64,000 bases of DNA from Botryllus schlosseri. Its lineage: Eukaryota. Numbering within the stretch: position 1 is the stretch's first letter; each line of letters opens with the position of its first letter. The position numbers and the translations under genes were made by a program. The notes under the pieces were generated by a model that was given only the letters and a program-made list of their open reading frames with translations, did no database searches and was not told the DNA's origin. Below are positions 1 to 31,210 of the stretch, one piece after another. The stretch covers positions 124,001 through 188,000 of the forward strand of contig CM119371.1 of assembly GCA_051294905.1 (NCBI GenBank), read 5' to 3'.

Positions 1-3000
1 TTACGAGTGTGAAAAGGATTTGCACGCCCTGTGCAGAGTATCGCGGTAGTGAACATATTTTTCGCGTGACGAAACACGATCGCTGTTTAAATGTTAATGC
101 ATGCATTTCGATTACCGAGTTGCTATACAATAGAGACGACTCTACATTAGATCATGATGTGTGCTTCGATTAAAACCGCAAGACCACATGAAAATCTATT
201 CGCACAACTCGATGATGTTGATATAGTGTTACTAAAATTAATTATTACGTATTTACACAACATAAAAATACCAATTCATGTCGTAGTAAGTAAGTTTCTT
301 GACCTCGTGCTTGATGAAAACGAATGGCGACAAGTATGCTGTTGTGTTTGAGTGAAAAATAATTATTTAGAGTAGTGACAGTTTGTGACCAACGAATGCA
401 AATTGATCATGATATTACAATATACACTTTCATCAACATAACGACTTGACACAGGAGAAACACTTTCACGTTTTTCAATAACTCGATTCTTGAAACTTGT
501 TACTTTTACGATGTATCGTTGGGGTGCAAACTATAACGACCATTTTGTATGATAGTATGTTTTAGTTGTATTGTTGTGAGGACAATCATATGATGACTCA
601 GCACTTTTCGCTAGCAAAGTAAATTGTTTTGTGTGTTAGATTTGTGGAAAGTAAGTCGAATACATATTTTTTTTTGTGGAAGTAACTGTATTATTGTGAT
701 ATCATTGGCAGGTCTCTCAAGCAGTGACCATGGTTTTGTTTTTGAAAGATGTATCGATATAATATTTTCTAAAAGTCAAACTCGGACGGTTATCATGACT
801 GTGTGGGACTTACGATAAACACCTTTGTTACAAGAACTATGATATTTCTGTAAGTATTATAGTTGTGTGTTGGATTATTTGAATATTTAGATGTGTGACC
901 ATTCGTGTAAAAAAGTTTGTAGAGTCTAAACAACCATTTGGTTTCGTAGTGTAAGGATATGAAGTAAAGTCGACTACTTTGTGTGATGTAAATATCCTTC
1001 GTACTTTTGTAAGAGTTGTGGGAGGGTGCTCATTCATACCCTACAAAGTAACTAGTTGATACAAACAAAATAATGAATGACCGCCAACACATTGAATTCA
1101 TAACCCAAGATTGTGAAAATTGTTTACTGTTAGACTAACATAATTCGTATCCAGCAAAACGATAGACACCAAAGGTTCGATGGGGTTTAAATCTAGATTG
1201 TATTAAGCGAAGTGATGAGTACCTCCAGTAATAAAATCGAAACGGCCAAAACAAATTTTCTGTGTCTTGGTTGTTGTAAATAACTATTTGGTATGATATT
1301 AGTTGAGTGTGTGACAATTCGTATCTGTCGAGGCTGAATGCTTAACCATATCGAAATGAATCCAGAGCACATGAAGTATACATTGGTCACAATAGAATCG
1401 ATGAGAATGTTAACCACGTAGAGTGTGTTTGTTTAAAAATCATTTCCAATGCGGCTACTTCGATCGGTATTAATTCCATGTCATACAAAAAATATGAAAC
1501 CATTGTACAGTTTCGTTTTACGAGAATATTGAGTAAAGTTGATTATTTTTTGTGTCACGAAAATATCTTGTGTTGATATTGCACACTGGTTTCGTTACCC
1601 AAGTGAGTGAAAATTGTTTTCTACTGGACAGATATGATTTGTATTTAGAAAAAACGACCCACACCGATAAAGCGACGTTGTATAATATCCACTGAGTGCG
1701 TGAAATTGCCTTACGATTTGATTTAGCGAGTTAATTGTTGGTGATTCAATCACATACAAGTATATGGTCTTTTAGTGACTGAGTATTGTGACGACATTTA
1801 CTTTGACAAATGGCAATGGGAAAATTTCCAATTTCTCTGCTCGTGTGTGTTGCACAAATAGTACTAGTATGCATTCAGTGAACATCATACAAATTGACAA
1901 CGACTTTCATTAGTTTGGTTAGATGATGACAATTATTCCGCAGGTTCAAATCGATATCACTACTATGAACAACAATACAAACACATTTTTCTAGATTTCA
2001 GTGTAGCACATACTTCGATTTTATTATTGTTATGAGTTTTGTATTAACCAAGGTCGGTTGAATAGGATCCATCCAGTAAAGATATTCAAAATTGTTTCTC
2101 TGTTGATCAAAGTCTTAGAGTGTAACCTCGTAATGTTTTACATTTCACACATTCGACAGAGAGTGTGAACAGAGTTTAACACGGATTAAACGACGCCGCC
2201 CGGAGTCCAAAGTGATTTACTCGTACTGCGTAAGATGAGTATGTTTCAATTCACCGTCACAGATTCTGACAATAAAGTATTACCCGGTTGTTAGCCAGCA
2301 AACGGAATTGTTGTTTCATCTTTAGTCTTGGTAACTTAAACGATTACATTTGTAAAGTATTTTCTGATATCCGCGATACCCAGAGTGATTTGTACCAAGG
2401 TGGAATGATTTGTCAATCAAGAACATTTCAGACACGTATAGTTTTACAACTCAATATGTTAATAGCCATGATAGTGAAAAGTTTGTTGCTGTCGTAATAA
2501 CCTTCACCACATCGGTGGGTCTAATTAACACAAATAAATTAGTAATCAAGTCATGATAGACCATTACAAAACCCCATATGTCAAATCGATGTGACAATCC
2601 TGGTAATTTTCGATATAACACCTACGTTCGATTGTAAGAAATGAATTCTCAACTACGATGGCCAGACTTTCAAATCTTGTATACTCAAACATGTTAGGTC
2701 AATCTCAAGGCGTCTGCATCGAGTAGTAATTACTTTTGTCTTACAAAATCTATCGAGTAGTAATTACTTTGTCTTGAAAAATAGTAACGACTTTTACAGT
2801 TGAACAAAAAAGACGAGTTGGTGGTATATGGCTAAAACCGAACTTGATATGTTTGTGGGTTGTAGTGATTACTTGCGTAGTCTTGTCTACTTTTCGTATG
2901 GACACTTTTTGCTTTGGTTCGGTGAGTTACAAACGGATTGGCTTGACAAGGTTTGTGTATTTTACTCTTTTGTTGATGGCAAGATGGTGAGATGTCGAGG

Positions 3001-3935
3001 CGTAATACTATTTCCGTACACTCAATTACAACAAAACATAACCCGCATTCAAATAAGCCGTAAGCTACAAGCGGATTTAAAACTTGATGCTGTTTTGTGG
3101 TTGACTCAAGTCAGTAGTCATGTTTGTGTTGATTTCGGGAATGATCATGACGAGTTGGTCGGGTAAATTAGGTAATGTGGTAGTAACTACGACCTTACCG
3201 AGTTGCTGACATTCAAATATCTTTTACGGATTTAATTGTGATAAATTATTTCTCAGTTATTGTTCAGACATTCAAATCTCGTATACTCAAAATATAATAT
3301 GTTCAAGTCGAATCGTGTATGCACCGATTAGTAAATACTTTGTCTTCAGAATAGTAACGAGCTTTACAATCGAATGAAAAAAAGAAAGACAGATCATACG
3401 AATACAACCAGGATGAATTAATTCAAATTTATGAGTTGTAGTGATATAATCAAGTAAGTGAAAACTAGATTTTTAACAATTGTTATTGTTGTGAATAATT
3501 CTTTTCAGTATGGTAAGATGTTAAAATATCTCTTTGACAAACGGAAAGCGGGGCCGTGAATAGAGTTGCAATGTTACATTACTTGTTTCAAATCAATGTG
3601 TGTATAATATCGAAACGGGCCTGTGGGAAAGTTGGTAGTCATGTTTGTCAATCCTATTTCAATTCACACTACGCCAAAGTCAAAATATTCGGTTTCGGAT
3701 TATCTCAATTTACCTCTAGAACATCTCGCGAATGGATTCCGACACCGTACTATAACTAGATCGCTATGTCTGATGCATTATCCTGTCAGCGACCGTAGGG
3801 TTTTACAATTATTTCACACGTTTTTGAATAAGCATCCACTTCGCAAAGGATTAGGGTTGGATCAGAAATAAGTGAGAATTTGTCGGTATTCGAATCACCG
3901 TCTGCGACGGTTCTGTTATTCGTTAATTATTAAAT

Positions 3936-4306
3936 CTAGACCAGATACCGAAGAAACCAACTAACGGAAAATTCGCTATCATCATTAATTACGACGAGTC
4001 GAGTTTGCCTAGGTCTCGCTGGGTGTGTGTATATACAGAGATGGCGATACTCATTTTCATGATTCACTAGGATTCGGACCACTAAAACCTCAGATAATCG
4101 AATTCCTGGAGCCGGATGAATTTTCTGTGACTGGGAAACAGTTACAGAGTAAAACTTCGGATGTGTGTGGAGATCATGCTATTGCATTCTTGATAAAAAG
4201 AGCTCAAGGGTTTTCAGCCGAGGAATACTTGGATAATTTTGGCGATGATCAAAAAGTGAATGATACGATTGTACGTGCTTTTGTGAAGAGTTTGATTTCA
4301 GAGTAA
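3936..4306 (+). pseudogene. Adenovirus-type cysteine protease (peptidase C5, Polinton PRO) pseudogene
   Basis: One frame reads LDQIPKKPTNGKFAIIINYDESSLPRSRWV. After a slip in GTGTGTGT (~4023-4030) it continues CIYRDGDTHFHDSLG...QLQSKTSDVCGDHAIAFL. This matches the Polinton PRO pattern IINxD..PGSHWV..FDSxG..QxQ...SxxCG. The catalytic His position reads Arg (CGC, 4017-4019). Confidence 0.8.
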
Positions 4307-4799
4307 TAAACGAATGTGTAAATGTGTATACTTGTGATTCTTGTTGCAACTGTGAACAGTGGACTATTCTGTAGGTGTGAAACAGCGAATAAGCCGAAAG
4401 TATTATTCAGGTAGCAATCAATAGCGAGGAAAGAGAACACGATCGGTCATTTGACACGACTAAACTACGACATCATATATCATAATTTACGATCAAACTA
4501 TTTCGCACTGAATGGAATAGTGTAATAAGCGATAGTAGCACACAGCTGCATGGGAAACAATTCACCGCGCAGGTCATTCGAAATATAGGTCGCACTGCTT
4601 AATCCTCGCAACAAGCCACGTTTCCGTCCGCGTGGTTATTGTTGGTGACTCGTACATATTCAACACCATGCGAGAGATACTCGAAAGTACGAATCATCGC
4701 CGCGTCCATAAGAATAACGATATATCATTGTCGTACTCGCCGTAATTTGGAATATACACATTACCTAAGGACCAATCACATGACTATTTACTTGATACA

Positions 4800-5075
4800 T
4801 ATTCAACACCGTGCCGCCGCGCCTATACCCACAACGTTAGTCAAATCATCTCTCCTGAAAGGTCACCATGTCACCGCGCCTATACCTGAAAAGGTAACCA
4901 TACCACCACGAGTTTTCACGGCACCGTGCCGCCGCGCGTATACCCGAAAAGGTAACCATGCGACCCCCGCCATAAGACACAATGGCACCGTGCCACCCCC
5001 GCCATAAGAGATAAGGGTCACCGTGCCACCCCCGGTTTCTCGGCACCGTGCCACCCCGCCCATAAGAACCCCATA
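4800..5075. repeat. GC-rich subterminal motif array of the first Polinton-like element
   Basis: Repeated cores GGCACCGTGCCACC / GGTAACCATGCGACC alternate with recurring spacers CCTATACCCGAAAA, CATAAGA, GAGTTTTCAC. Confidence 0.75.
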
Positions 5076-5389
5076 GCCCGTCACGACCGATCTACTTAAC
5101 TACTTACGAGTCGGATAGTGAGAGATGATTTTTTCGTGTACTGAAACTATGCGCCATGAAAGTCAATTTATCCAAGAGAATGTTCGTTCCGATTGACTTT
5201 TCCACTGTGGGAGTCTTGAAAACTAGATTGGTCATATAACAGCATATGAATCCTGTACTACAAAGCTAAGCAAGTTAGTGGAAATGGCTTGATCAGCCCA
5301 CAGCAACATAGCCTTACAGGACTGGGTGGTCACGTAGTCATTGTTGGTGCTCAAGCAGAAGTAATGTCATGCAATCTAGAGTACAAGTA

Positions 5390-5830
5390 TACCGTAATTT
5401 TCAAGGTATGATACGCCTCAACGTATGATACGCACCCTTAAAATGGCATGTAAATTCTGGGGAAAAGCCTGCACCCAGTTTATCGAAGTACTCCCCAGAG
5501 TAATTTCAAAAAATCAAGGTCAAAACAGAATGTTATGACGACAACACCATGCAATTTGAAACCAAGTACCTGAACATTAATTAAATGAGAAATTTCCTAC
5601 TGCCTCGTTGATATCACTCCAAAACTAAGAACAAAAGAAGCACATTTGAGCTGGATACTTTGTGATACGCAGATAAACAGTGACCTTGGATATATAAATA
5701 CCATCCTCAAGAAATTCCACAAATTTTACATGCCAATTATCAGACCGCTTCGGTGACCTGTATACACCCAAAATTATATCCTTTGAGAACCATTACTGGG
5801 GGAAAATTTGCGTTACATAGGATTACGATA
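5390..5830. mobile_element. Degenerate Tc1/mariner(pogo)-type non-autonomous element
   Basis: Starts TACCGTAATTTTCAAGGTATGATACGC with a repeated TATGATACGC; eroded end near GGGGGAAAATTTGCGTTACATAG. Right boundary approximate. Confidence 0.35.
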
Positions 5831-6699
5831 TGTCCTCATTTAGGAGCATTTGTCCCTTTTTCAAGATTTTCAAAATGTCCTGAGACACAGTAAATCAGCA
5901 GAAATAACGCCCACGCTGGCTATTTCGGGAGCTGAGCCAAAAACTTGACTTATTTTAATCAACCGACCGGGAGAAATTTCAAGTAATATGGTAACCCTAG
6001 CGCTACAGAAACTTGCAAATGTGAGTCTGTGATGATGGTATATATTACTATCTTCGTGCCTCGTGCTAATCGAACCGTTATTACGAATATAATATGATCT
6101 TTCAAAAAAATTAAGCAGACAGTCATTTTTATGTCATTTCTCCCGCGTGTAATGAGCTCAGAAGAGCTGATGCGCTGCAGCCTATGCATGCCACGACACC
6201 CGCTTTCGTATCAGACTTTTTTGTAGGTAATAAATACAGCGTACAAACAATAATTAGCCTACGGCTGGTATGAGGCAAAGTTATTGTTAAATATACGATT
6301 AGTGGTGGGTCATAGGTCAAACACGTTTTTGAATTTGCGTTGCAACAACAAAAGTTACGGAGCCACTGCACTCGAATTTCCTATTAGGTTTATTCGAATT
6401 ATTCCACGCCAGAACAAGTAACAATTATTCACTATTTTCATCCACACTGAAAATTGTTTCATCAACACAAATGCGTACCATCCGTCAGGTTGAAAGGCAC
6501 TGCGCTAGTTCATTAAATAGAGAAAATCATAAGTTGGTGATTTTTAATGGGACTCTGGGTCGCGTAAACTTCAACAGAACCACATATAACGAGTGTGATA
6601 TCAAAAAGGCACTAGAAACCGTCTAATTAAAATGAGCCTCTGATATTTGCTTTCAAGTTGCACACTTGGCTTAAAGGGGCACTGCACTCTACAGATGAT

Positions 6700-6970
6700 G
6701 TGGTCTGAAATTGAAAAGCATAACGAAAAAAAATATTTGGTCGCAGCCGTTTTCTTCAGAACGCCACCGTAATGGAGCTGCAATGTATTGAAATTTCCAG
6801 AAACACATCACGCTCCAGCAGGCACGCAGAGATCGAACTTTATATAGTTATCAGCCGATGTTATGAAGGAAATATGTCGTACAGGCAAAGGTGGTTTAGA
6901 TACAGCTTTCAACGGAAGATGTTCAATCAGAATATTTATGTCAAAATCGGGTCTACTGTATTCTATTTCT
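6700..6970 (+). repeat. Interspersed repeat; second copy at ~38170-38441
   Basis: Both loci share TTTTCTTCAGAACGCC...GAACTTTATATAGTT...ATGTTATGAAGGAAATATG...GGTGGTTTAGATA...TTTATGTCAAAAT. Confidence 0.8.
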
Positions 6971-7185
6971 GTCGTGTACGACATATTTCCTTTATAATAT
7001 CGGCTGACAACTATATAAAGTTCGATCTCTGCGTGACTATATTAGACTATATTAAATCAAAATTCAGCAACAGCACTATATTTAGGGGTATTAGATTTAT
7101 CATAGTTACATAATTTCACGGATATCATGTACATAAATAAACTCCAGTCATGTAGATAAGTATTTATCTAGAGATACTCAAATAA

Positions 7186-7657
7186 CGGGGCATCAAACCA
7201 CTAGGTGTCGCCAGACTTCTGGTGGTGGTAACCGCCATTGTTACGTATACGCGGTTGCCGTTATCAGAAACCTGTAGGTTACTTTCTCGATTGCGTAAGG
7301 GTATTTTATATGGAAATAATGGCTACAACATTCTACGTGGACCGTGAGCTCGCTATAAAATGAACTAAAACTTCGGAAAGCTTCTACGGAAGGAAATAAG
7401 GCCGATTTGATAACTAGGTGAGAATGTGAAATTGTCAACTAAATGTCGGCTACCCGCTCAGTACCAGAAGTTTTCGAAGTTTTAGTTCATTTTATAGCGA
7501 GCTCAGGGTCGACGTACAATATGTTGTAGCCATTATTTCCATATAAAATACCCTTACACAATCGAGAAGGTAACCTACAGGTTCCTACGGCAACCGCGTA
7601 CGAAACAACGGTGGTTACCACCAAAAGTCTGACGACACCTAGTGGTTTGATGGACCC
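7186..7657. mobile_element. Palindromic MITE with ~200-bp imperfect inverted arms
   Basis: CATCAAACCACTAGGTGTCG at 7191 is mirrored by CGACACCTAGTGGTTTGATG at 7633-7652; the inner arm GAGCTCGCTATAAAATGAACTAAAACTTCG is also mirrored. Confidence 0.8.
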
Positions 7658-7659
7658 TA

Positions 7660-8500
7660 TTCAATCAGTTTTACGTCACCACCTATTGTAAATTTGAAAT
7701 AATCAGTTGGAATACAATATTATTGATATATTTTGAATCGAAATTGATTTTTGTACGATTTTTGCCTGCAACCTATTTAGTGCAGTTTCTCGAAAGGTTC
7801 CAGCAATGGTCTGACATAATATGTTCAATGGTTCATCTCATCTGCTCTGGTATCTTTATATTGTTGTTCTGATGACTTGTTAGAACCTCCTAATGTGAAA
7901 TTGGAAACTTTCATCGGTATTCGAATATACCAGATACCAGATTTAAGCTTCTCGTTTGATAGGGTTACTAGGTAGGCTATACCCACTTTGCTGACTCAGT
8001 GGAAAATTATCCATTTACCAGTCAAAATAAATGAGACACATGTGAGTATTGTGGTTAAGCCTTTCATGAACAAATTTTATAGTTTATACTCCTCTTTAAT
8101 CTTGGTAGAATGACCAATTGATACAGGAGAAGATGAGTTTCTGTTTCTCAAAAGTACAATTTTTGGGCTTGAAAAACTGTTTTTTTGACAAAAAAATATT
8201 TCGCATCATGCCATGTTAATATTGATAGAAGGAGTGAGAATGACATGAGGGTTTTTCATAGTCAATTAGCCATTTATGTGCAGTATAAAATTAGAAAAAA
8301 CTACGATTTTCTTCCTACCAAGTGAAATATTCAAGGGTAAACACAGTACTTTTGGGCTTTTTTAGGGGTATAACTATATTCTGACAGAGACCCAATCTGA
8401 CAAAGCTAATGATATTCGTAATCAGCAACCTCAAAAACCCCCGAAACGGCTCTCAGCTGTTCTGCCTAAAAAAAAAATCATTTTGTTGACAAGTGTAATC
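7660..8500 (+). repeat. Degenerate interspersed repeat; related copy at ~13190-13660
   Basis: Both loci share AATCAGTTTTA..CCACCTATT..AAATAATCAGTTGGAA and TTCCTACCAAGTGAAATATTCAAGGGTAA blocks in the same order. Confidence 0.6.
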
Positions 8501-10417
8501 ACTCATTATGACGATATAAGTATATGGGAGACCCAAACGCTTGAGTATGTAGCCTACTTTTCATGTAACTACGAAACATAAGGCCGGCTCTTCACCACGT
8601 GATGATGATCTGGTATTTTTGAAAATACTTTATTTGGCTTTGTGACAATGTTGCAAGTTGATCACAGCTACACAGAAATGTCATTTACTCTAACGTGCAT
8701 AGCTTTGTACAGTATGTTTCGTATGTTGCGATATGACTAATCGAGGTTTCAGAAAATTGATGCAATTATAACTTTTTGATGGAACTGGGCGTAAAGTTTC
8801 ATTAGTCCAAAAAATCGTCTTTCTATACTTGACTGGAATCATTACAGTTACGGAACTTGATTCAGATTCGACTACCGGTACGCAAATCATTGTGCCTCGG
8901 TCCCATAGATAATATGGACCTCAATGTAAAACGATGCTGCGAGTGTGATCAAGTTTAACCTTGAGCCTTGATCAAGCCAGAGTAACGGATTGTTTGTGCC
9001 ATGAAAATAGATTTGGACTCCATCAAGTTTCATACTTTGCAGAAGTTTGGCTGATAACCTAGCGAAATATATCTTAGTAACTATCAATTTATCTTGAATG
9101 AATTACATACCATAAGTATAGTTTCCACGATATGGCATGATGAAAAACAAGCTTTTAATGATCATTCAACTGTGAAATTGAAGGGCTTTTTCAAGGCAAA
9201 TTTGAAATTGCGTCTGTAATTGGGCTACTGTGACCTTACAATCCTGTTCACTTTGTTATGGTATAAATATTGTTCTATTCTGTCATGTAAGTAAGAGATT
9301 AGGCCTAATAATTTTTCATGTTCGGCCCTAAATGTAGCTCGAGTTTGGGGTCATTGTCTACAGAAATCAGTCAAGTGTGACAATATTATAGGATTCTCGT
9401 TCTCATTTCTGTCTGCTTTGAAATTTTTGCCACCAATTGAAAGATTCGCCAACTATACTGATTAGCATCAATGTTATGAACTATCTCTGGACTCTCCCAG
9501 CTAATATTTCATTACGGTACTGTTCTTGAGTAGCAACAATGTTTTCTACCACCTTGACTCTGCCTGAAAATATTTTATTATTCTACTCGAGTGGCATTAT
9601 TGTCGGCACCTATCTCAACATGGGTGTCTACTCTATACATCCCCTACAATTATTATACCCTTTCTTACAGATAGCATGGAACTGCCCGAGATTTTATGCA
9701 ATTCAACGTTATATGAAGACCCAAACAGAAATCACCGCCGTGTCTCTCACAATGATAAAGGTACCGATTATTGCTACTCTAGTAGCATAGTTGGCGACAT
9801 TGGAAAAATAGAAACATTCATAAGAGGCCAGTAAAGAGATATTTCCGGCGCATACTGTGAGTGCTTGGTCTTAATGCTTGGTTGATCTCAGTTGTCAAGT
9901 CCAAAAAGAAACGCGAAATCAAGACATTTCCCGCTGCTATCGAAGGGCGGCTGGTGTTCATTCGAATCTGTCGATGGATGTTACGGAAGACGGTGGGCCA
10001 AGCCTTTCCATGAGTATGGACAGATTTTCTATGCCAACATATGTCTCACTGCATCAGTGGTTGACAGTCAGCTGCATTTTTGAATTACTAACCTAGAGCT
10101 AGTCACTTTTTAAACCTTGAAACTAGAACTAGAACTACAGTACTCAAAAAGCCAGTAGCTAGCAGACCCGGCTTGTCACTTGATAAAATATGTAGTCACA
10201 CAATTTACAGAATTGAGACATAGCTTTTTCCTGGTAACACATTCGATTTGAGTTGAAGTTCAGGCCATCTCCGGTGATGACATGCAAGCGACAATTATGA
10301 GCTGAATCGCATAGTGTACATTATCCTTTTTTAAGCTGTTTTGCGGATGGTTCGGTGTCGCGTTTTGCAAGGTGTAAATAATAAATACAATTAAATAGTA
10401 TATTCATATTGAAATGA

Positions 10418-10461
10418 ACCCGAATATTTTCGGCTGACACTCGTCAGGGGTAATCGTCAGC
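10418..10461 (-). ncRNA. Minimal hammerhead ribozyme (Penelope pLTR type), intact copy
   Basis: Minus strand reads GCTGAC GATT ACCC CTGACGA G TGTCAGC C GAAA ATAT TC GGGT. Core CUGANGA/GAAA, stem I ACCC/GGGT, palindromic AUAU loop III, UC cleavage site. Confidence 0.8.
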
Positions 10462-10611
10462 AACTAGTAGAGAATTGGAAAGAACATTGTATATCAACAA
10501 TCGTATCACAAAATATGACGTCACCAGCATGAAATTTCGAATGAGAGAGCGTTCAATGTACTATTTTTAGGTGATACACGAACTCCTTTTGTTGACAGAG
10601 TTTTGGTTGGT

Positions 10612-11239
10612 CATCAGCCGCGGCATGGAGAGGAAATTAACGCAATTCAACGCAGAAAAACGAACAGAGCCCACCGCACGAACAATAAAAGATGTTTATA
10701 TCCATCTACCTTGGATTGGCCCCATTTCCACCCGCTTTGAAAAACAATTGATTTCTGCTGTCGGTAAATGTTACGATACAGTCAAAACCAATGTGATTTT
10801 TACAACAACACAACTGCTCCCTTCAACACGCAAAGACGTGCTTCCTGCACTTCAACAAAGTAATGTAGTGTACGAATATAGGTGCCACTGTGATTGTGGC
10901 TACGTGGTAAGAACGTCAAGACGTCTGCAGGACCGCATAAACCAACATGTCCCCAGATTTATCAGAACACGTACGTCACACGATGTGAAAAGCTCACCCT
11001 TAACTCATCCACTTAAGATTGATGCTGATCGATCAAAGGCAATTAATTCTGCCATCGGCAAACATCTGTTGGATAATCCGATTTGTGCGAATAATTATCG
11101 AGACGACCGATTTCGAATCGTAGGTCGAGGCCGTTCACAATTCCATTTGTGTGCCTTGGAATCAACTTTTATCAAAATACACCAACCAAAACTCTGTCAA
11201 CAAAAGGAGTTCGTGTATCACCTAAAAATAGTACATTGG
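10612..11239 (+). pseudogene. Penelope linker plus GIY-YIG endonuclease fragment
   Basis: Reads LPWIG...VVYEYRCHCDCGYVVRTSRRLQDRINQH...SAIGKHL...LESTFIK..PKLCQQ. The native stop TGA is kept in the inverted copy but reads TGG at 11237-11239 here. Confidence 0.85.
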
Positions 11240-11330
11240 ACGCTCTCTCATTCGAAATTTCATGCTGGTGACGTCATATTTTGTGATACGATTGTTGATA
11301 TACAACGTTCTTTCCAATTCTCTACTAGTT

Positions 11331-11374
11331 GCTGACGATTACACCTGACGAGTGTCAGCCGAAAATATTCGGGT
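11331..11374 (+). ncRNA. Minimal hammerhead ribozyme, copy with a stem I mismatch
   Basis: ACAC CTGACGA GTGTCAGCC GAAA ATAT TC GGGT; ACAC replaces the ACCC of the inverted copy. Confidence 0.7.
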
Positions 11375-12479
11375 TCATTTCAATATGAATATACTATTTA
11401 ATTGTATATTGAAGTTCTGTACCTCCAAGAAGCTCTTCAAATAATAAATACCAATTTGGAATTGTAATTTTTTACTATAACGGCAATCGTATTGTAAGGA
11501 CAAGAAATAATAACGTGCAACAAATTGCTTAATAACAGCCCGAAAATGTATCATCATCAATTTTGTTGCCAAAATTTTCGAAGGTACCCTATCCATCAGC
11601 AATAATGGTAAATCTGTTCCCATGAGCTGAGAAAGGATAGATCTGTGATAGCCATATTAATATGTGCATCGTGCAACTACCAATTACCAAATAATTCATG
11701 CAGTCGCGGGGCGACCAGACAGTGTATCCCAATAGCTTTTCATAGCAATTATGCTATTAATTCCGGTGAGTAGTTAGCCTGTAAAGAGCGTTCTATTTCT
11801 ACAATTAGTAATTTATATATGCTCTTTGTATTTCTTAAAAAAAACAGTGATGGCACAGTCCGCGGTGCCGACCAGGTGAAACATTACGATTGTCCACAGG
11901 AATGTGGGACTCCGAGTGTACGCTAGAGAAGTTCTGAATGTTTGAAATTTAAGATTTGAAATGACAGTATTTTCGGTGGCCAGTTATAAAATAAATAATT
12001 GAAGAATTTCCTACCGTAAATACTTATTGTTAAATTTTGTGCAATATACACAAAGTCATTCTGTTGGCACTAACTAGGTTGACGGAATTTGGTAAAAGTC
12101 AACATCAAGGTACACAAACGATACAATAGACAGCGTCATCCGAAAATATTTTGGTTTATTTCCATATGAATATATTATTCATTGGTATACTGTCTCTTGA
12201 AGTACTCGTCATCCATTTCACTTTCCGAGAATGCGGCACCAACTCTCATCACAAATGCAACATAAAAATGCCGCATACTTACGGGATGAAACAGTCTCTG
12301 CTGGCGGCGGCGCTTGATAAAATTGGACAAAGCTTCTTCTGTAGACGTAAGTCGATGGTTAATGACTTTGTGTCAGACTTAAACAACCAGATAATTCTAA
12401 ATTAGACCAATTAAAGCAAGATGCTGGTAATCTAATGCCAATCTAATGTGTCTATGCTCTCATTTTAATAGTAATGTAA

Positions 12480-12730
12480 TTTGTGGAACTTTTCTATTAT
12501 TCTGATTCTGACCTAATTTCTGGTTTTCCAGTAAATGAAATAGGAGAACTGTATAGTACGAAACGAGCCAAGCTTGCTGTACAGACATCATTTGCTATTT
12601 TAGTGCCTATGAGAATGAACTTGCTTGTGTTGTTGGACTTCTTTCTGATCCGTAATTTAATTCAGTTTACAGTTTTTGCGAATTCATCGATTCTTATTCT
12701 AATTCTAATCTAATTTGGAAAAACATTGTA
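12480..12730 (+). repeat. Degenerate TCTAAT-rich interspersed repeat; related copy at ~16540-16800
   Basis: Both loci share GAGAACTGTATAGT..GAAACGAGCCAAGCTTG.T.TACAGACATCA. Confidence 0.6.
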
Positions 12731-15700
12731 CCGGTACTGTCATTCTAGTTCCAATAGAATTTTGTAAAACACTGTAGGTGTTATTTTATCTAATTTGGGA
12801 AAGCTGAATATTTTTAAGTACCGTATCTGTTAATTCACTAGTCAACACATGTTTTTCGGCAGACAAAGTAAAAGGGGTTTTGGGGGTTCTGAAGGGTACT
12901 GATTAGGCAGATGATGGGGCTAGTTTGACTAAAATCTCATATTTTCGCTGTATACATGCTAAGTAAAAAATTGGCTCAGTCGTGTTATAAAGTTCAGAAA
13001 TTCAATCTTCTTATTATTTTGATATGATGAAGACCGTTTTTATTCATAATACAACAACATAATTTTATTTCGTCGTACCGGTATTTGATTTATTATAATT
13101 GGAAACTTTCACGTATATCGTCATTTACATAAATAAACTTCAATCACGTATATAAGAATTTACCTAAACACTCCAATAACGTTGCATTAATTGAATCAGT
13201 TTTATCTCAACCACCTATTTTAAAATTCAAAATAATCAGTTGGAACATAATATTAATAACTTCTCTGAAAGCAAATTTGGTTCTGGTATTATTTTCGGTT
13301 GTAAGCAATTTAGTTAAGTTTTTCGAAAGGTTTAAGCTATAGTCTGCCATAATATGTTCGTCGCTTCTGGACTGATATCTTTCTTTTGTTGTTTTGAAGT
13401 ATTGGTGGAACCTTTTTCATTTCTAATCTCTCTAATCAAGTTAAAGATGTTTGAACAGAAAGTATAAAAGTAGAAAAATTTAAGATTTATTTCCTACCAA
13501 GTGAAATATTCAAGGGTAATTTTTAGGGGTAAAAATGTCTTCTTTTCTAGAGCAAATCTGGCAAAACTAATGTGATATTGGTAAAGAACAACCTTGAAAA
13601 CCCCAGAAACGACTCCTAGATGTTCTGTTCTTTTTCATTTTGTCGACAAATGTTATCGATATTGGGTTAAAGAGGAGAGGACATCGACAAAATCTGAGCA
13701 ACCGACTCCAAAATCGAGTGTATACGAAAATGTCAACCTCAAGACGACGCTGTCTCAAACGAAAACACCTGCCAAAGGCACCAATAGAAAGCTCGGTCCT
13801 ATCCGAAAATCTGCTATGGAAAATATCCCAGGTTCTGATTCTACCGAGCCACTGCCCAGATCCCGGAAACTGGCTCCACATTTCAAGTTCTCGTTGATCC
13901 AATTCTCATTCAGGTCACATGCTTCTGGTTTAAATTCAAGTAATAAATACCATGTTTCGACACTCTCAAGTTGTTTGAGTTGCTAAACTTTATTGCAAAC
14001 AGGTATAATAAGAAGTACTCCAACAACCAATCAACTATTTGAAAAAAGTTTATGATGCTATGCGAAGACAACACGCACTGCGTGAGGACAGCTGCGGTAC
14101 GGTCATCCGTTTACGATGATCGTGATTGGGCTGCTATGTCGATCTGGCCAGTCGTATCAATATCAATCACCACACTATCAATACCACTGCATTAAGGCGC
14201 CATGTTGTCGACTCGGCAGGCATTAGATCGTATCGGAGTGTGTTCGCGGGCGGATGCCTACTGAGCCATCCACCATCTTATGAAACTTGTCAAGCCCTGG
14301 GTGGAAACCAGTATGGCCCACCGGGGTCTGGACTTGCGTTATGACTGTGTCCAGCCACCCTACCCAAGAGAGTCAGACTACCACTAAGGGTCTCCTTCCA
14401 CAGCTATATTCTAGATCAGGGGTCACCAATGCAGTGCCCACGGGAACCAGTTAGCCCGCAAGGACCAAATCAATCGCCCGCGGGCCTGTTATAGAAATAG
14501 ATTGAGTAACAGCCCTTACCAATGACGCATTGTATGCATTCGCATACATCGTATCTCCATATCCCGATAACATAACGACAATGCGCGGTTCAAATAACTA
14601 ATTAATTTTTACTTCAAATCAATTCCACACATTTCATAACACGAAAACGCAGTCCAATACAACATAAAATCACGGAAATGAAGATACTTATTAGGAGTCA
14701 TTAACAATACTCTGGGTTATCATGGTTTGTGGATAATGTCAGTATAATTGCAAATTAGTCAAAATGGACAGTATGAGTAATTTATGGAATTTCAAGCAGC
14801 AAATCATAATATCTCAGTAAAAAGGGAATATTGAATCACATTCATAAGATTATGTGAAATTTTGATTGTTATGGATCGGCAATTTGCCTCTTTTTCAGTT
14901 AACTATGGTGTATTTAGACATTGAGAATCAATTAATCACACATCAATAACAAACGAGCACATCAAGAGGGATAAGCCAATTATATTATTCTTGAAGCATT
15001 TAGAAACACAAAGGTAGCAGAAAACTTGGTCACTGGTCATAGAAGCAAGAAAAATTGTAGGCTTGAAATACAGCGACCGTCATTCTACAGAATAATATTA
15101 ATGTCATGAAATATCATGGTAATGGAAGTTTTAAACTCGGTAAAGTTTACCTTTCAACACTCTCCTGAGTCAACTGTACTAAAGATATAGAGAAAGATTA
15201 CTAGATCATGATGGAACATGGAGAATCTTACATAATTGACATTACAATGGTTTTCATACACCACACTACATTTATTATCATTTTTTTTTAAGTATTAAGT
15301 TTATATCATAATCCATCACACAAAACGTTAAAACACTACACAGTACACACTTCACATTAAAGATTATACCAATTTTTTTCTTCATTTTTCCATATTTATG
15401 ATTTTTATGTAACTTCTATTATAATCAATTATTTTTAAGGTGTAAGACGATGGAATAAATTTATTTTATCCCGATATTCGATTCTACCTTGTGAATCAAT
15501 CATTATAATAGCAAAAAAATGAATAGGATGACGGCTTGAACTCTACTGTAGTAAAACCATCCGAGCATTCGTATCACAGTGAAACATTTATTTTCGGGAA
15601 TATTTAGGATCGACGTGACGTTTACGGTATTACCATTGTTTACGTCGAGTTGTGAATTATTTTTGCAACTGTTTTGGTTATCTAAGTGTACAATGAAATA

Positions 15701-17161
15701 TGCGCAATATAAACAGCATCGCGAAATTGCATCAATTAAACATGAAATAGACAGTTTAAATTATTAAATGAAACGCGGTAATTCTACACTCCAAATTTCA
15801 ATTTTGATGACGAGGAATTGTTGGCTCTTGTAAACGATTACCGATATTGCATCTGCCGTCTTCTTTCCGCCTCGCTGTAATATAAGTACCTCTGAATAAA
15901 TCGCTATCCTATCTAATCAATCACGTCTGCAAACTATTCGTACCATGAGCCGGAGATGGACTATTCACGCGGTTACATCATTACAGTGCACAAAATAGAA
16001 TTGGACTTTTTGTAAACGAACTAGGCTCACAGTCGGATAGATTTTAGGGATTTAATCTACAGGGGGATTGTGCATTTATATTTTGGCAATACGATTCTCA
16101 GGTATCTTGTGAACACAATTCAATATACGGTTACATATTTATTCAGTACTCCCATTTCATGAAAATAATCCTGCAGGAAACACATCGTATCCCAGGAAGC
16201 GGTATTGGCTGGGACGGTGTACTTGCTAGAGGACATTCTTGACAGTTTACATTTCAATTAGGGAAATTGCGGTGCAGGTAACAATGTCAAGCATCAATGA
16301 CACTTAAAAAGTAGCTCTACAGCTTGTTTGATAGAAATTATATTTTTATCACAACTAGGATCATCTCTACTAGTGGAAAATTCATCAAAACTTGGGACGT
16401 ACGTTTCTTCTTCAAGGTAGCCTAAAATAGGTGACGATAAGCGCACTACTATCATACTTAGATAATTGAACATTTCTAGTTTTCTAATTAGATTAATTAG
16501 GGCGAAATGCCGGCAATATAATTTGAATCTATTTTGTGAAATGATTCTCTGCTCTAATTCTAATCTAATTTGTGAAATTTTTATATGTTTCAATTTTAGT
16601 TCAAACCATATCTATGGTTTTCCTGTGAATGCTACTGAGAGAACTGTATAGTGTGAAACGAGCCAAGCTTGTTATACAGACATCATGCTTGTAAGAATAA
16701 ACCATGATTTGATAGTATCAGAACTGGATTAAAGGACCTAGTTTTTACGGATCCAAATCTAATTCCAATCTAATTTGGAAAAATGTGTAGCTATAACTAT
16801 AGTTTCAATGTATTTTGAAAAAAAGCGACGCGATAATTTTAATTCTACTATAATTTGGAAATCACTGTGTAGCGTCAATTCTAATTCTACTATATGTTAG
16901 AAAAGAAGTTGTAACTGTAATTCCAGTTCTAATCAAATTGCAAAAGCAGGAAATTTTCTGCATGACCGAGTATGACTGAAAATTAATCAGAAATCCTGTC
17001 GATTTGCGGCACAACTCTTGAGTACTTTTTTCAAGGCGATGGATGGGTACGGAAAATTTGTAAGTTGTCACTTGCGATGACCTGATAAAAGTATTCGACC
17101 CGTCCCAGTAATAAGATTTGAATTTCACATGCTCTAGTACTTTTTAAAGCTTCATTTACAC

Positions 17162-17484
17162 CAATGGTTCAACAACCTCTTTTTAGACACGCCCCCTTTA
17201 AGATAGTGGAAAATCTCGCGCACGCTTATCGTCATATCACGGAATCCAACCGGGATGCTCATGCTGGCAACTTTAACAGATTTACTGGTGGCGTGGAAGG
17301 ATATGACTGTTTATGAGGGAATTAAAAAATAAAAAATTCGGTCTATATATTGAGAAACACGTGTAACTTGGAGGTAAATCGCGCATAGCGGTAAATTTTT
17401 TTCAATTGACCGCTTCTTTGCGCCCCTCTTCAGATGCTTTCACATCCACCAAGGGGGGCGCGTCCCCCAGTTTGAGAACCATTG
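17162..17484. mobile_element. hAT-type MITE (323 bp)
   Basis: Ends CAATGGTTC...GAACCATTG; perfect 8-bp TSD ATTTACAC (17154-17161 and 17485-17492). Confidence 0.85.
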
Positions 17485-19392
17485 ATTTACACTATTGATA
17501 CATGCTCCCGATTAAAAAATGGACGGGACCACTCCAACTTCTGTTCGAGTTTAATCAATGAATATTTCGATAGTTTCTATAAAAATTATGCGACAACATA
17601 ATACGACCACTGACCGTATTTATTTCACATCAAGCAGCTTAACAATCTAGACGTATTAATTTTCGACCTATGTCGTGTCGACATATAAATTTTTCGAGTA
17701 TCTCATCAAATCTCTCGTTTTCTAAGATAACAAATATTTCTCCCAAGAAAATGATATCGGCTTGGTCTGATTAAAGCAAGTAATCATGCATTGAAGTGAC
17801 GCATTACTGCCGAAGATCAACTTTACTATTGCTCATTAGTGGAGATGGTCAGTAACCAAGTACTTCTACTTTTTCAAAGTACAAAAGTACGTGTCGCCCA
17901 CTTTCACTACTTACTGAAGCATTTACAATACTGATTACTTTTATTTCTACTTCACAATTTTCATTTTTTTAGCAAAACTAGGAATGATGTGATAAGTTTG
18001 TTGCGACTCGATCTAAAATGATGTATGACAACGCTGTTACATTATTGCAGGAAAAGCAAAGTTTTTTTTTATCAAAGATACATGTTGTGTACCGCGTGTC
18101 ATCGTTATGACGTAACTTTCCGACATCACAATAAATATTATTGTATAATAATTTGAATATTACACGGAGCGTGCCACAATATTTCTAGGATGCTGTTTGA
18201 AACCGGATGTGTATGAGAGTGGATCGACGATGTAAGGGAAGGATAAATCTCAACTCTCATTTTAGAGCGGTCAGACTTTGTATCATCAACTCACCTGTAA
18301 TAAAAATCCAAGTCGAGTCTCTGCCAGACATCTTTAAAATCGAAGGGGAAACGTAGCACTAAAATGAAAAAGAGTATACAGATACAAGATATTTGTTAGT
18401 AAACGATGTATGAATCATATGAATTGTGCTCTGTTGCTGAAACAATCATCTGGCTTGAAGATAGTTGATATAATATAGAATATAAAGAGAAGAATATATC
18501 GTAATTAGGCGTAATGAACCAGCGCTTGTCTACTATTTTAAATCCGGATCCTATTCCAGATGATCCATTCAAATCCAAGTACAAATCCCTATTTAATTTT
18601 GTATCGCGTCCATATCCAAGTCCAATCCGGTAATGGTGGAAACTTGATTAAAAAGTCGCATGAAAATTTAAACTTACGAAAATTTCATGTAAAAGTACAG
18701 ACGCATATACATCTTCGAATTAATCATAAATAAACATCAAAAACCAGTTACAAGAGACGCGTGACCTCAATACCATAGATATGCATAATCAAAATCGCTA
18801 TATTATTTGTTCTAGTTTCCGTTCGAAAGCGGTGGCTTTTGAAGGGAAGGTTGCTGCGGCCAAAATGTTTTTCACATTCTCCACTTTCATTTCATATAAT
18901 ATTATATTTAGAGCGCATTCTGGTTTTAATGTGTTATAGTTATGTCAGTGGGCAGTGAAATGAGAAATCACACCCAATATAATGCCGCGACAGTACAATG
19001 CATATAACATATATCTAATCCAATTAGATACGGGAATGAGTGAAAGTAACTCTTATCCATTTGTAAAATATTCCCTGCAATATGCAGCTAATTATTTACG
19101 TGTTGTCAATCGATTCAAATCACTAAATTTATATTCGATTTATATTCGCACCGGTTCCACGTTCTGTGAGATACTTTCACAGAACGAATATGAACTCGCA
19201 AATTCGTTTTCGTATCAAGGGTAAATCGAAAGAAGAAATCCCGAATGCTATTTCAAGACAAAACGATTTCGGAATTAATGCAATTTTGTTGAACCTAAAA
19301 TAATGCACAATGCACATGAATGATGAAATGGTTCGTATCAACGCCAACATAAAAAGTGGGATGCTGTATGACATAAAACCACGAATCCTGCA

Positions 19393-19975
19393 GATAGGTG
19401 GTCAGTAACGGAGTAACTCTACTTTATCAGACCACTCAAGTAGTGCTGTCCACTTACATCGCTTAATCAAGGGGTTGTCATTTTAGACTACTTCTGTTTC
19501 TACTTCTTGTCACAATTGTTAGTGAAAACTACTTACTTCATACAATATTGATTTTGAAAAGTATCAAGTTGTTCCTAGCTGTGTATTCGTCATCGTTTTC
19601 AGTGAAATTTTTATGGGAGGCGCCTTAAATATCCCATGTATCACGGTGACTGCATGAACATATTTTCAAAGATTCCACACAGTTGCAGTGTCATTTAGTC
19701 ATTTTGCATTAGCCGCGAAGTTATATCTTGCAATTTCGAAAGTAGATATCTCCTATAAACTGTTATAAACGTATGCGGCCCTTCGATCAAGTCTACTTTT
19801 TGACACTACTTATTTCACTACATTTCGGGCTGATACATTTTCTATTTCGACCTCAAGTCAATTTGTGATTTCTTGGAAATTGCTACTTCTGCTTGTAGCC
19901 TATATCAGCAGCAGCTTACGGCGCTATTTATCGTTCCACATGAGTCTTAACTTTCGACTACTTTGACCACCTCTA
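19393..19975. mobile_element. AGTA/TACT-rich MITE family; other copies at ~17840, ~37633-37854 and ~38053-38970
   Basis: Ends AGGTGGTCA...TGACCACCTCTA, with internal CTACTT/AGTAG repeats shared across the loci. Confidence 0.55.
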
Positions 19976-20275
19976 ATCATTCATGAACTCATTTTAGCAA
20001 CTCTCAGAACCAATTGGAGTGCGCTTGGTCACCAGATGTCGTAAATAAGCTGCATGAAGTAATAAATTTGTTCCATAGTTATAAAAGTATATGAAAGTGG
20101 TTTACAAGTATATTTGACTCATCGTCCCCTTATCAAGCTCGATATATCTTTATCACGCCCATAATGGAAGAAGTACTATCAGCAGCGAAGTAGTTGTGCT
20201 TTTCTGTAGTACTTATTATAATATACTTGTTAGTAGTATAGTCGATCGGTCGTGAGCGGCTAATTTTTTGCATTG

Positions 20276-20925
20276 GTTCTTATGGGTGCGGCGGTGAGGT
20301 GCCGCGAAAACTCGTGGTGGTGATGGCACCCTTTTACACCCCCTCTCGGCGGTGAGGTGCCATGTGTTCTTATGGATGCGGTGATGATGGCACCCTTTCG
20401 GGTATAGGCTGCGGCGGTGAGGTGCCGCGAAAACTCGTGGTGGTGATGGCACCCTTTCAGACCCCCTCTCGGCGGTGAGGTGCCATGTGTTCTTATGGAT
20501 GCGGTGATGATGACACCCTTTCGGGTATAGGCCGCGGTCGTGATTCGCCGTGAAAACTCGTGGTCGTGACTCGCCTTTTTTGCTATAGGCGGTGGCGGCG
20601 ATTCGCCTGTCGTGTATTCTTACGGGATCTGTGGTGATTCGCCATGTGTTCTTATGGGCGGGGTGGCGATTCGCCTGGAAACCCGGGGTGGCGATTCGCC
20701 TTTTTAGACCCCCCTCTGGGCCGCGATTCGCCATGTGTTCTTATGGGTGCGGTCGTGATTCGCCTTTTCGGGTATAGGCTGCGGTGGTGATTCGCCGTGA
20801 AAACCTGGGGTGGTGACTCGCCTTTTTTGCTATAGGCGGTGGCGGCGATTCGCCTGTCGTGTATTCTTACGGGATCTGTGGTGATTCGCCATGTGTTCTT
20901 ATGGATGCGGTCGTGATTCGCACTT
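20276..20925. repeat. GC/CpG-rich subterminal array, probably the original TIR; mirror at ~34280-34928
   Basis: About 25-bp units of a core (GGTGATTCGCC / GGCGATTCGCC / GGTGAGGTGCC / GATGGCACC) plus recurring spacers. A higher-order 123-bp duplication starts at 20287 and 20410. Confidence 0.85.
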
Positions 20926-23900
20926 TCAACCATCTCTCGCGTGGTGTTGAATAGTCACCAACAATAACCGCACAAACGGAAACGTGGCTTGCAAGAGGAT
21001 TAAGCAGTGCGACCTATATTTCGAATGACCTGCGCGCTGAATTGTTGCCCGTGCAGCTGTTTTGTGCTACTATCGTATCGATTATTACACTAATCCAGTC
21101 AGTGCGAAATAGTTTGCTAAATCTAGGAATCACTTCCAAGGTAATATTTTGGTAATTAGTTTACCGCAGAGCCGGCGTAGTCGGCGATTCGAATATCAAC
21201 AATAACCGCGTTCACAAACTAACACTTCAAAAATGTGTGAAATAGTTTGCAAAACCCCGCGATCTCTGACAAGACTCGGGTGACATGATAACGTTACAGG
21301 TATAGGCTGAGGTGGTGATTCGCCATGTGTTCTTATGGGTGCGCTCGCACGTCGTACTTTCAAGTATAGGTATCTCTCGCATGTCGTATTGGAAACTCGT
21401 GTTGGCTCGCTCACGCGGTGAAATTTTAGTAATCAGTTTGTCGCAGAACTTGATTTCACTCATAAGATTTAATAAGTAACGAATAACAGACCGCCAGTGT
21501 GGGTAACTTGAATAGCGACAAATTGTCACTTATTTCCGCTCTAAGCCTAATCCTTTGTGAAGTGAACGCTTATTCAAAATGTTGTGATATAATTTTAAAA
21601 TCCAACGACCACTCACCGGATAATGCTGCAGACATAGCACTCTCTCATGCCCGCTCACATGGTAATATTTCGGTAATTAGTTTGTCACAGAACCGTCGCA
21701 GACGGTGATTCAAAACCAGCAATTTGTCACTTGCCCGCGATCGCTATATGTTTTGACACTTCAGAAGAGTGGTTGACTTTAGTTGCGTGATACAAATCAT
21801 GAGAATATTCAATCAATGCGTCAATTTGTCAACTCGAAATGAAACTCACTACACAGTTCAAGTTGATTCGTATCTGAATGTGTTAATTCGGTACAATTCT
21901 AATTATTTTGAGAAATCTTTTCGTGATCTTTTGATTCGACTGCAACCTGAATATTACTGACACCGACTTTTAGCCACATCGAATTATTCGCACACTCCGC
22001 GCCGTCGTTTTCATAGCTATAGAATCAATACCAACTATAACTCTACAAGAATCAAGAATCACAAGTATGTGCATTATACAGTTATTGTCTTTATCAACAC
22101 GAAATCAAACTCTTAACAAAAACACGCAACTAATCATTTGGCAACTCTAGCATTACCAAAAAATTCCAGTATTGTTGATTGAAAATCCTTGAGTCATTAT
22201 TATCAAAAATGTTATAGTACCGCATCGGAATCCATTCGCGGGATGTACTAAAGGTAAATCCAGATAATCCAAAATGAAATATTTGGACTTTGACAAACAT
22301 GACTACCAACTTTGATCCAGTCACATTTCAAGATTACACTTTGAAACAATCCTTGAAACTTACAACTCTATTCACGACTGAGTTTTCCGTTTATCAGTTT
22401 CAGTAAATACTATCGCGATATTTTTATGTGTTACTACACACAATAGAATCAATCAATGAAATAGCACCTGTTGTAAATATTTCTAACTTGACAACCACTT
22501 ATGCATACCGCGATCGACTTGTGACGCGATGAGTTAAATCGGAATATTTCAATCTATTTTTTGAAACCTTGAACAAGCTATCAGGTGTTTTTTTTTGTAA
22601 TCGAGTGAACGGAAATAGTATTACGTCTAAACATTTTACCATCTTCCCATAAACAAAAGAGTAAAATACAAAAAACCTTGTCAAGTCAACCCGTTTGTAA
22701 CTTACCCAACCAAAGCAAAAAGTATCCTTATGAAAAGTAGACAAGACTACGCCAGTAATCACCACAATCCAAAATCCATAGCAAGTTCGGTTGTATTCAT
22801 AGTCCACCAACTCGTATTTTTATTCAACTGTAAAAGTCGTTACTACTCTGCAAGACAAAAAAAAATTACTATGTGGTATATTTTGTAAGACAAAAGTAAT
22901 TACTTCTCGGTGTCGGCGACTTGAGATTAACATATGTTTTGAGTATATGATATTTGAATGTCTGACCAACGTAATTGAGAACTCATTTCTTACAATCGAA
23001 CGATTGTGTTATATTCAAAGTTATCATGCTGTGAACATAAGGATTGACACATTGCTTTGACATATGAGATTTTGTAATAGTTGATCATTACTTTATTATT
23101 GAATTATTTGCGTTAATTAGACCCGGCATTGTGGTAAATGTTATGACAGCAACAAACTTTTCAGTACCAATGTTATTAACATATTAAGCTGTAAAACTAT
23201 GTGTGTCTGAAATGTTCTTGATAGGAAAATTACTCCACCTTGGTAAAAATCACTCTGCGTATCGCGGATATCAGAAAATATTTTCAGTAACAAAGACTAA
23301 AGATGAAACGACAATATCGGTATTATTACATTCAACAATCAGTACAATTATTAAAATCTATCGTTTGCGATAAACAACACTAAAGATGTAATAATTCCAG
23401 TATTCATACATTAAACCTCCGATACAAAATGCTTTATTATCCCGATTCCCAACGGGTAATTGAAACGACTAAGTGTAGAATCAGTATATCACAGTATCGT
23501 TACTATTGAATCCAACGATTTATCGTCGGAATTTGTGACAGAGAATTGAAACATATGCACTTTACAGAGTGTGAAAATATCACTTTGAGTATCGAGTACC
23601 GTTCGAAGCTAGCGATGAATTCTCAATCATTTCAGTAACTCCCCCCATTGTGCGTGCTAAATGTAAAATATCGCGAGGTTATACACTCTAAGACTTTGGT
23701 CATTACAAAAGTAAATTGTGATATGTTTGTTAGATGCATCCAATTCAGTTAGAAATGTCTGATGCACAACAATCGTAATATCAAAAAAGTACTTGCTACA
23801 CTGTTATTTGCTAAACGTGTTTTGCATTGTTGTTCATTTGTAGTATTGATTGAAATTGTTCTTGAACCCTCAAATAATAATTCCTGACATGAAACTAAGC

Positions 23901-23990
23901 CGCCGAAAGTCGTTACCATCACAAAGAAACAATTTGCACGATGTTTACTAAATGTGTCCTATAGTTAGGTGTACTGGAATTATTAGTAAA

Positions 23991-24016
23991 ACACACACAC
24001 ACACACACACACACAC
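23991..24016 (+). repeat. (AC)13 microsatellite; mirror (GT)14 at 31180-31207
   Basis: Read directly. Confidence 0.95.

Positions 24017-31179: not shown

Positions 31180-31210
<31 letters not shown>

Follow-up and report, generated by a model that had tools for sequence, protein, structure and literature searches.

In this study, we analysed a 64,000-nucleotide (nt) stretch of Botryllus schlosseri DNA (assembly GCA_051294905.1, contig CM119371.1, positions 124,001 to 188,000 of the forward strand; hereafter, the window). The window begins inside a mobile element, element B, the visible outer part of which occupies positions 1-5104 on the plus strand. A second element, the palindrome A, lies 15.1 kb downstream of B at 20232-34972. 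Judged by its colinearity with the arm of A and by contig depth, B is derived from a Maverick/Polinton element and extends past the window start. B retains the remnant of a Polinton gene, joins low-copy host DNA at a real junction and belongs to an abundant family, in which a structure that was already broken has spread and genes were lost at different times on different branches. We propose that B is a helper-dependent, integrated copy of a non-autonomous Maverick/Polinton-derived family, namely the family of A but another subfamily of it. We put the probability of this reading at roughly two in three.

The initial annotation assigned B to a gene-less Polinton lineage. The Polinton part of this assignment is now strengthened by a core-gene remnant, and the same remnant contradicts the term gene-less as far as B is concerned. 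A broken adenain-type cysteine protease gene (Polinton PRO) is present on the plus strand at 3918-4306, with the protease sequence running from about 3918 to 4303. Its start is gone, its frame is broken near 4025-4040 and the catalytic-His motif is absent. The C-terminal 97 codons are open (4013-4303) and are followed by a stop codon that overlaps AATAAA. It accounts for the last two thirds of a Polinton protease, and the N-terminal piece lies in a different frame. The claim that B and A equally lack open reading frames is therefore not correct for B. When the frame 4013-4303 was compared with the Atlas, it scored 0.96 to Preplasmiviricota clusters, and 0.93 and 0.91 to adenovirus-endoprotease clusters. 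It had 196 relatives at E ≤ 0.001, the best of which were P0001 (81 amino acids, 65%) and the intact protein P0002 (151 amino acids, 52%). In a tblastn search with P0002, residues 26-59 matched B 3936-4040 (43%) and residues 51-147 matched B 4016-4303 in another frame (50.5%), with a joint E value of 1.4e-31. The remnant covers positions 21-159 of the 175 positions in the profile, and the Gln and Cys columns that are invariant in the family are retained. The missing part is the first 20-25 codons, where a sequence module (module Y, see below) adjoins. Thus, B carries a remnant only and not an intact adenain-type protease.

The relatives of the remnant were characterized further. Stand-alone proteins of 130-200 amino acids account for 122 of 151 relatives. 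Twelve of 17 scanned relatives matched Peptidase_C5 or C48 at E ≤ 0.1, and five of these passed the curated cut-off; neither P0001 nor P0002 gave a match in this family scan. A profile of 29 relatives, searched against solved structures, matched S273R of African swine fever virus (1.5e-12) and adenain (1.9e-8). The top match of the P0002 model (pLDDT 95.4) was the adenain of Terrapene adintovirus (TM 0.91, E 2.1e-14), with the next structural match trailing by seven orders of magnitude; in the PDB, human adenovirus proteinase came first (E 2.6e-7). The protease piece alone was unmatched in Pfam, in PHROGs and in a word-indexed search of longer proteins, and it gave one match among solved structures (E 0.22). 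Clustering at 90% returned only P0002 itself. A period-3 scan of 41 windows gave a z value of 3.4 on the protease; it should be mentioned that this is a weak test, with five coding controls reaching merely -0.2 to 2.4.

A tail of the same gene is present in the right arm of A at 32983-33098 on the plus strand (mirror copy at 22215-22100), where a tblastn search with P0001 detected about 40 codons with frameshifts and one stop (E 0.027). In this block, A and B are identical at 122 of 157 columns (78%), which corresponds to the average distance between A and B. Because the tail occupies the matching place of the arm and shows the average distance, the segment was present in the common ancestor of A and B. 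Strictly speaking, neither element is without Polinton core genes, given a remnant in B and a tail in A, and no working core gene was found. Otherwise, giant palindromes owe their Polinton label to an end motif and a footprint of 6 bp each. Given a core-gene fossil at a fixed place of the arm in B, together with the tail in A, the arms trace back to the genome of a Polinton, and foreign DNA that had acquired Polinton ends is not their source.

We searched for other genes in B. In the six frames of 1-5102, no protein-primed PolB, rve integrase, packaging ATPase or major or minor capsid gene was detected by scans that also missed the protease and may overlook decayed genes, and neither a Pfam family nor a PHROG below E 0.08 was matched in these frames. 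Only two frames of at least 100 amino acids exist in B, so that its visible part contains no intact core gene. One of them (2804-3166, plus strand, 120 codons) is probably a chance frame and was rejected as a gene: 38 of 300 shuffles (0.127) gave a frame as long, it had no Atlas match and no homologue, and it is interrupted by stops in A. The other, of 134 codons (4603-5007), lies within GC-rich repeats. No Rfam family was found in 1-6000. In the region 1801-2160, two overlapping windows gave a period-3 z value of 3.1 without a recognisable frame; this may be a second decayed gene or trinucleotide-rich sequence. Because an intact protease is lacking and the other core genes were not found, we do not class B as an autonomous Maverick.

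The right end of B has the features of a Maverick terminus. Maverick/Polinton ends carry the motif (AGT)2//(ACT)2 or (AG)3//(CT)3 (PMC8097293). The protein-primed polymerase of Polintons starts at the terminal motif, and their integrase leaves a 6-bp duplication (PMC8097293; PMC6431247). B ends with ACTACT at 5099-5104, and its terminal motif (5081-5104, minus strand) starts with AGTAGT, which is of the (AGT)2//(ACT)2 type. The terminal 24 bases are identical to the ends of A at 21 positions, and when up to six mismatches to the B terminus were allowed, the two ends of A were the only other matches within the 64 kb. A begins with AGTAGT, ends with ACTACT and is flanked on both sides by the 6-bp duplication CTTGTT. 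B is followed by TACGAG (5105-5110, plus strand), a candidate right copy of its target duplication. A 368-nt contig from a public sequencing run (X1, see below) covers 5075-5442 with no differences at a depth of 8.87; therefore, the junction between B and the flank is not an assembly artefact. The TACGAG at 2-7 of the window was considered as the left duplication and was rejected as a chance occurrence: it is not followed by AGTAGT, it is one of six plus-strand occurrences and it sits inside high-depth family sequence. In the first bin of B, the summed depth of X1 contigs was 128,321; therefore, the repeat continues upstream of position 1.

Element A served as the comparison. Its arms align over 6,897 columns at 99.74% identity (10 mismatches and 2 gaps) around a spacer of 955 nt. 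As the initial annotation stated, B is colinear with the right arm of A. The matches are on the same strand, with mirror matches on the left arm, and the order is kept along the arm with one exception, the 180-nt module Y. The homologous blocks are B 493-1164 (A 30078-30794), 1744-1850 (31083-31187), 1956-2145 (31348-31539), 2307-3036 (31883-32608), 3535-3756 (32802-32987), 4179-4343 (32981-33145; E 2e-9), 4494-4714 (34088-34308) and 4886-5104 (34744-34972). Based on nhmmer and blastn blocks, the non-coding arm body common to both elements spans 135-3755 on the plus strand of B (A 29730-32986) and contains no recognised gene. With standard scoring, 2,913 of 5,104 nt (57% of B) aligned at a weighted identity of 75.1%; with lenient scoring, 3,650 nt (72%) aligned at 70.6%. 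In 20 local shuffles, there was no match at E < 1e-3. Thus, homology runs colinearly from the terminus inward, as in a member of the A-type family. An identity of 75-85% had been estimated by eye; this range fits the better blocks and is too high for the whole, because single blocks vary from 64 to 87% and the weighted values are 75% (standard) and 71% (lenient). B follows A inward to about 1.6 kb from the spacer of A. By the offset between the two elements, the positions that correspond to the arm start and the centre of A would fall about 1.5 kb and about 2 kb before position 1, respectively. Both arms of A contain 41-bp tandem arrays in their inner part (25804-26295 and 28884-29375), and the equivalent in B is expected just upstream of the window. 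The spacer region of A contains frames of 105 codons (27227-27544, minus strand) and 135 codons (26952-27359, plus strand), the latter with a weak, RING-like match below the cut-off (E 0.004).

The divergence between A and B is deep. Over seven blocks, 2,300 of 2,924 ungapped columns are identical, and the Jukes-Cantor distance is about 0.25 (six blocks outside the protease). Conservation is uneven, with 73-90% identity by block (chi-square 56, 6 degrees of freedom; the blocks were picked after the fact), and the best-kept blocks are 4494-4714 and 2307-3036. Cis constraint or exchange between subfamilies could be the cause. Distances between pairs of A-B mismatches leave a remainder of 0, 1 or 2 on division by three in 965, 906 and 970 cases (sums added by hand), as compared with 980, 882 and 980 expected without codon structure. 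Of 71 indels, 16 have a length divisible by three. Thus, the A-B differences outside the protease show no codon pattern, and most of the arm has drifted as non-coding DNA.

Local rearrangements, which had also been noted from the sequence, were confirmed: a deletion of 429 nt in A, a module that differs in place and copy number between A and B, and two old duplications in B. The segment absent from A occupies 3756-4184 of B (plus strand) by pairwise alignment, and contains module Y and most of the protease. Module Y (3758-3937, plus strand, 180 nt) adjoins the protease remnant at the place where its first 20-25 codons are expected. It is single in B, in front of the protease; A carries it farther out, as one full copy (33555-33733, 80%) and three partial copies (33466, 33925 and 34002). 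The duplications were found by a self-scan. In 941-1665 (plus strand), 941-1170 resembles 1510-1665 (71-73%), and in 2631-3381 (plus strand), 2631-2811 resembles 3235-3381 (72-81%); both are single in A. For example, B 929-1036 and B 1498-1554 both map onto A from 30571. Overall, the two duplications are 500-600 nt and 71-81% alike. Toward the terminus, the subterminal conserved block (4494-4714, plus strand) is identical to A at 191 of 213 ungapped columns, and this conservation makes it a candidate cis element. It is followed by GC-rich modular subterminal repeats (4706-5080, plus strand), in which three short motif classes are common to the terminal 1.3 kb of A. One motif, CCATAAGA, occurs four times in B 4600-5104 and seven times in A 33700-34972, and is absent from B 1-4599 and from the flank (5105-20231). 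In addition, a 32-nt tandem unit is present at B 4951-5034.

The abundance of the family was assessed in public sequencing runs. Of the 24 runs listed, 21 contain part of 1-5400, and contigs of four runs (X1, X5, X16 and X20) were aligned to 1-6000; statements on letter differences, indels, joints and loose ends cover 40 of 538, 12 of 70, 15 of 89 and 24 of 2,291 entries, respectively. In X1, which may be the source sample, 70,532 contigs aligned: 17,443 at 99% identity or more, 25,076 at 95-99%, 22,098 at 90-95% and 5,915 below 90%. The summed contig depth of X1 was 38,698-445,968 in the bins of 1-5000, compared with 211 and 281 in two bins of the flank; at 5401-5600, it rises to 7,469 because of a host repeat. 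The depth on B is thus two to three orders of magnitude above the flank bins, as in a high-copy family of the A type, although summed contig depth is not a copy number. The suggestion that the degenerate sequence is a family with deep internal divergence and not a one-off is supported by these data, the distance between A and B being about 0.25 and the X1 contigs ranging from more than 99% to below 90%.

The contigs also show that broken structures are shared among copies. Loose ends at 3756, the deletion joint of the A type, were observed in at least three X5 contigs and at least three X20 contigs, and 29 of 30 letters are those of A by eye. Because this joint is present in further contigs, a structure that was already broken was multiplied, as happens in a non-autonomous family. 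In the stretch of the His motif, two positions differ from B in 98-100% of the depth, and this holds for each of the four runs; thus, the loss of the motif is private to B or to a small branch. At least ten X1 contigs carry a different indel just upstream of this stretch, so that copies were broken in different ways. A 341-nt X5 contig spans 4030-4370 with 11 differences and no gaps. Several side observations were made in the same runs. Pieces near-identical to B occur at raised depth in X5 and X20, which carry other organism labels; examples are 994-1159 (no differences) and 2161-2443 (two differences). They may come from a closely related organism or a mixed sample, or the same host may have been recorded under a second label. 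In X16, the kind of which is not recorded, contigs pile up at 4401-4800, 3001-3200 and 1-200, 10-25 times more, relative to X1, than on most of B. This may reflect transcription or a library effect, and the top bins overlap the best-conserved block.

Inactivating mutations shared by A and B, the comparison of which had been proposed, were sought and none could be demonstrated. In the protease, the only recognisable gene, the deletion, the frameshifts and the stop of A are absent from B, and the breaks in the B protease lie within the part that is deleted from A. In the shared tail of the protease, there are three to six frame-breaking indels, depending on the gap cost, all on the side of A; their assignment to A follows from the gap-free alignment of B to P0001. 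Thus, genes were lost in a staggered manner: the branch of A deleted most of the protease and passed the deletion to further copies, and on the branch of B the gene stayed readable for longer. B is probably older than A.

We envisage the following mechanism. The founder would have arisen when one end of a parent element was copied back on itself. Such a copy-back product would possess two working ends and would not need genes of its own, and symmetric copying could account for the near-identical arms of A. The copies would keep only cis signals (the terminal origin, the integrase site and the subterminal repeats), and the polymerase and integrase of complete Mavericks would copy and insert these satellites. 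If the founder was formed by copy-back, B, like A, is probably palindromic. Its centre would fall about 2 kb before the start of the window, and its mirror arm would occupy the region from about 4 to 9 kb upstream.

Several points weigh against this reading. The window shows the right end of B only, and the left end, a second TACGAG and a mirror arm would lie beyond it. Over the 368-nt remnant, 4.3-5.3 breaks are expected and one was seen (P 0.03-0.07), if half of the A-B distance is assigned to the branch of B; with a third or a quarter of the distance on that branch, P rises to 0.14-0.36 and the tension fades. This hints that the branch of B held the protease under constraint for part of the time. 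The failure to show a lesion shared by A and B leaves a single gene-less common ancestor undemonstrated. No further core gene was detected by the family scans, but these scans missed the protease as well, and their negative results are therefore weak. Finally, no helper was found when viral and metagenome contigs were scanned by sequence pattern and by protein: the scan for the terminal pattern gave no hit in either set, and a protein-led search for loci with P0002 gave none. Two other loci were examined as possible relatives and rejected, L001 as an unrelated tailed phage by its open reading frames and L002 for lack of similarity to the window.

These points were considered together with other explanations. 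B might be the right end, decayed or with parts deleted, of an ordinary Polinton that is not palindromic and belongs to the lineage that supplied the A arm. The core genes would then lie upstream, and 1-3755 would be accessory or long-decayed sequence. In favour of this explanation, a core gene lost from A persists in B, all of the frame-breaking tail indels are on the side of A, and degraded fossils make up 96% of vertebrate Maverick loci (PMC8097293). However, at least 5.1 kb from the end contains one broken gene, whereas elements of 12.7-24.6 kb carry eight genes (PMC8097293), B follows A to about 1.6 kb from the spacer, and the depth across all of B corresponds to a very abundant family. 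We therefore regard an ordinary Polinton end as unlikely. A comparably low probability applies to the idea that B is a non-autonomous member of the family without being a clean palindrome, that is to say one-armed, truncated, recombinant or a mosaic that regained the protease late from a complete helper. The protease is better kept than the divergence of the arm predicts, it is joined to module Y without its start, conservation between A and B varies by block as mosaics would give, and many alternative contig joints exist (15 of 89 listed). A late regain is, however, difficult to reconcile with the protease tail of A, which stands at the same place of the arm and at the average distance.

In addition, we considered whether B is a foldback transposon of another superfamily, such as Rehavkus/MULE (Mutator-like elements), with a protease domain of the SUMO type and a Maverick-like end by chance. 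Rehavkus/MULE foldbacks possess a MULE transposase with a fused SUMO-type protease, and their target duplication is 9 bp. Five of the 17 scanned relatives indeed match Peptidase_C48. In contrast, 122 of the 151 relatives are stand-alone adenain-type proteins, adintovirus adenain leads the structural matches of P0002 by seven orders of magnitude, and A combines (AGT)2//(ACT)2 ends with a duplication of 6 bp, as described in PMC8097293. A foldback of this kind is therefore largely refuted and very improbable. We return to the helper-dependent Maverick/Polinton-derived family as the preferred reading. One extension of it is doubtful in our judgement: the palindromes may be a long-lived lineage of Maverick satellites, and the branch of B may have kept the virion-maturation protease under selection long after its split from A. 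If this were true, the satellites would have carried one gene of the capsid pathway per arm and would have taken part in helper particle assembly or interfered with it, in the way that snap-back genomes tune the virus from which they derive. The nested copies and the staggered loss would then form a datable series from a complete virus end to a gene-free palindrome.

B and A were compared with known systems. They resemble vertebrate Mavericks (PMC8097293) in the end motif of B, the 6-bp duplication of A and the adenovirus-like protease gene, and the 14.7-kb length of A is within the vertebrate range of 12.7-24.6 kb. In contrast to vertebrate Mavericks, no polymerase, integrase, ATPase or capsid gene was found in the visible 5.1 kb of B. 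Furthermore, the protease of B lies 0.8 kb from the end and points outward, whereas in most vertebrate Mavericks it occupies the inner end of a centre-facing module, and the inverted arms of A are 6.9 kb as compared with 46-1,447 bp (PMC8097293). For adintoviruses, adenain is a marker gene, and the P0002 model folds like the adenain of the Terrapene adintovirus; degraded endogenous copies of these viruses are common in animals (PMC8502044). Adintoviruses are, however, defined by arrays of large open reading frames with PolB, integrase and ATPase (PMC8502044), none of which was found in B. The snap-back defective genomes of adeno-associated virus, in which a linear viral end is copied back and which depend on a helper, are similar to A and probably to B (PMC8235507). 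The differences are that this virus is a parvovirus with hairpin priming and its snap-back genomes are short-lived and are not integrated by an integrase (PMC8235507), whereas the elements described here are germ-line insertions with target duplications that are about 25% diverged.

What is new from B is the protease fossil and the measured depth of divergence. The non-autonomous Polintons in Repbase have kept the termini, lost the genes and depend on a complete partner; they show internal deletions, two different inner parts and ordinary terminal repeats, and are not known to include whole-element palindromes. In the literature, we found no description of whole-element palindromic Polintons, most subscription papers being outside the search. 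Because the distance between A and B is 25% and the arms of A are 99.7% identical, the palindromic form has been propagating for a long time, with each copy symmetrised at or near insertion. This point bears on the replication of Mavericks. The conserved terminal 24 nt, the block 4494-4714 and the subterminal repeats point to cis signals.

Other features of the window were also recorded. A Penelope-like retroelement is present at 46394-51577, with a 609-codon frame (49466-51295) that matches RVT_1 and with inverted duplicate pieces that are 89-99% alike; the C-terminal part of this frame presumably corresponds to GIY-YIG. At 10385-11407, a 254-codon frame (10571-11335) resembles the C-terminal part of the 49466-51295 frame and lies between inverted arms of 227 nt (99%). 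A 529-codon frame with matches to NACHT and the NOD2 winged helix was found on the minus strand at 53569-55158 and resembles an exon of a host gene of the NOD-like receptor (NLR) type. Finally, a small foldback occupies 60173-60856; its arms measure 173 and 149 nt (91-95%), and it is related to 42064-42321.

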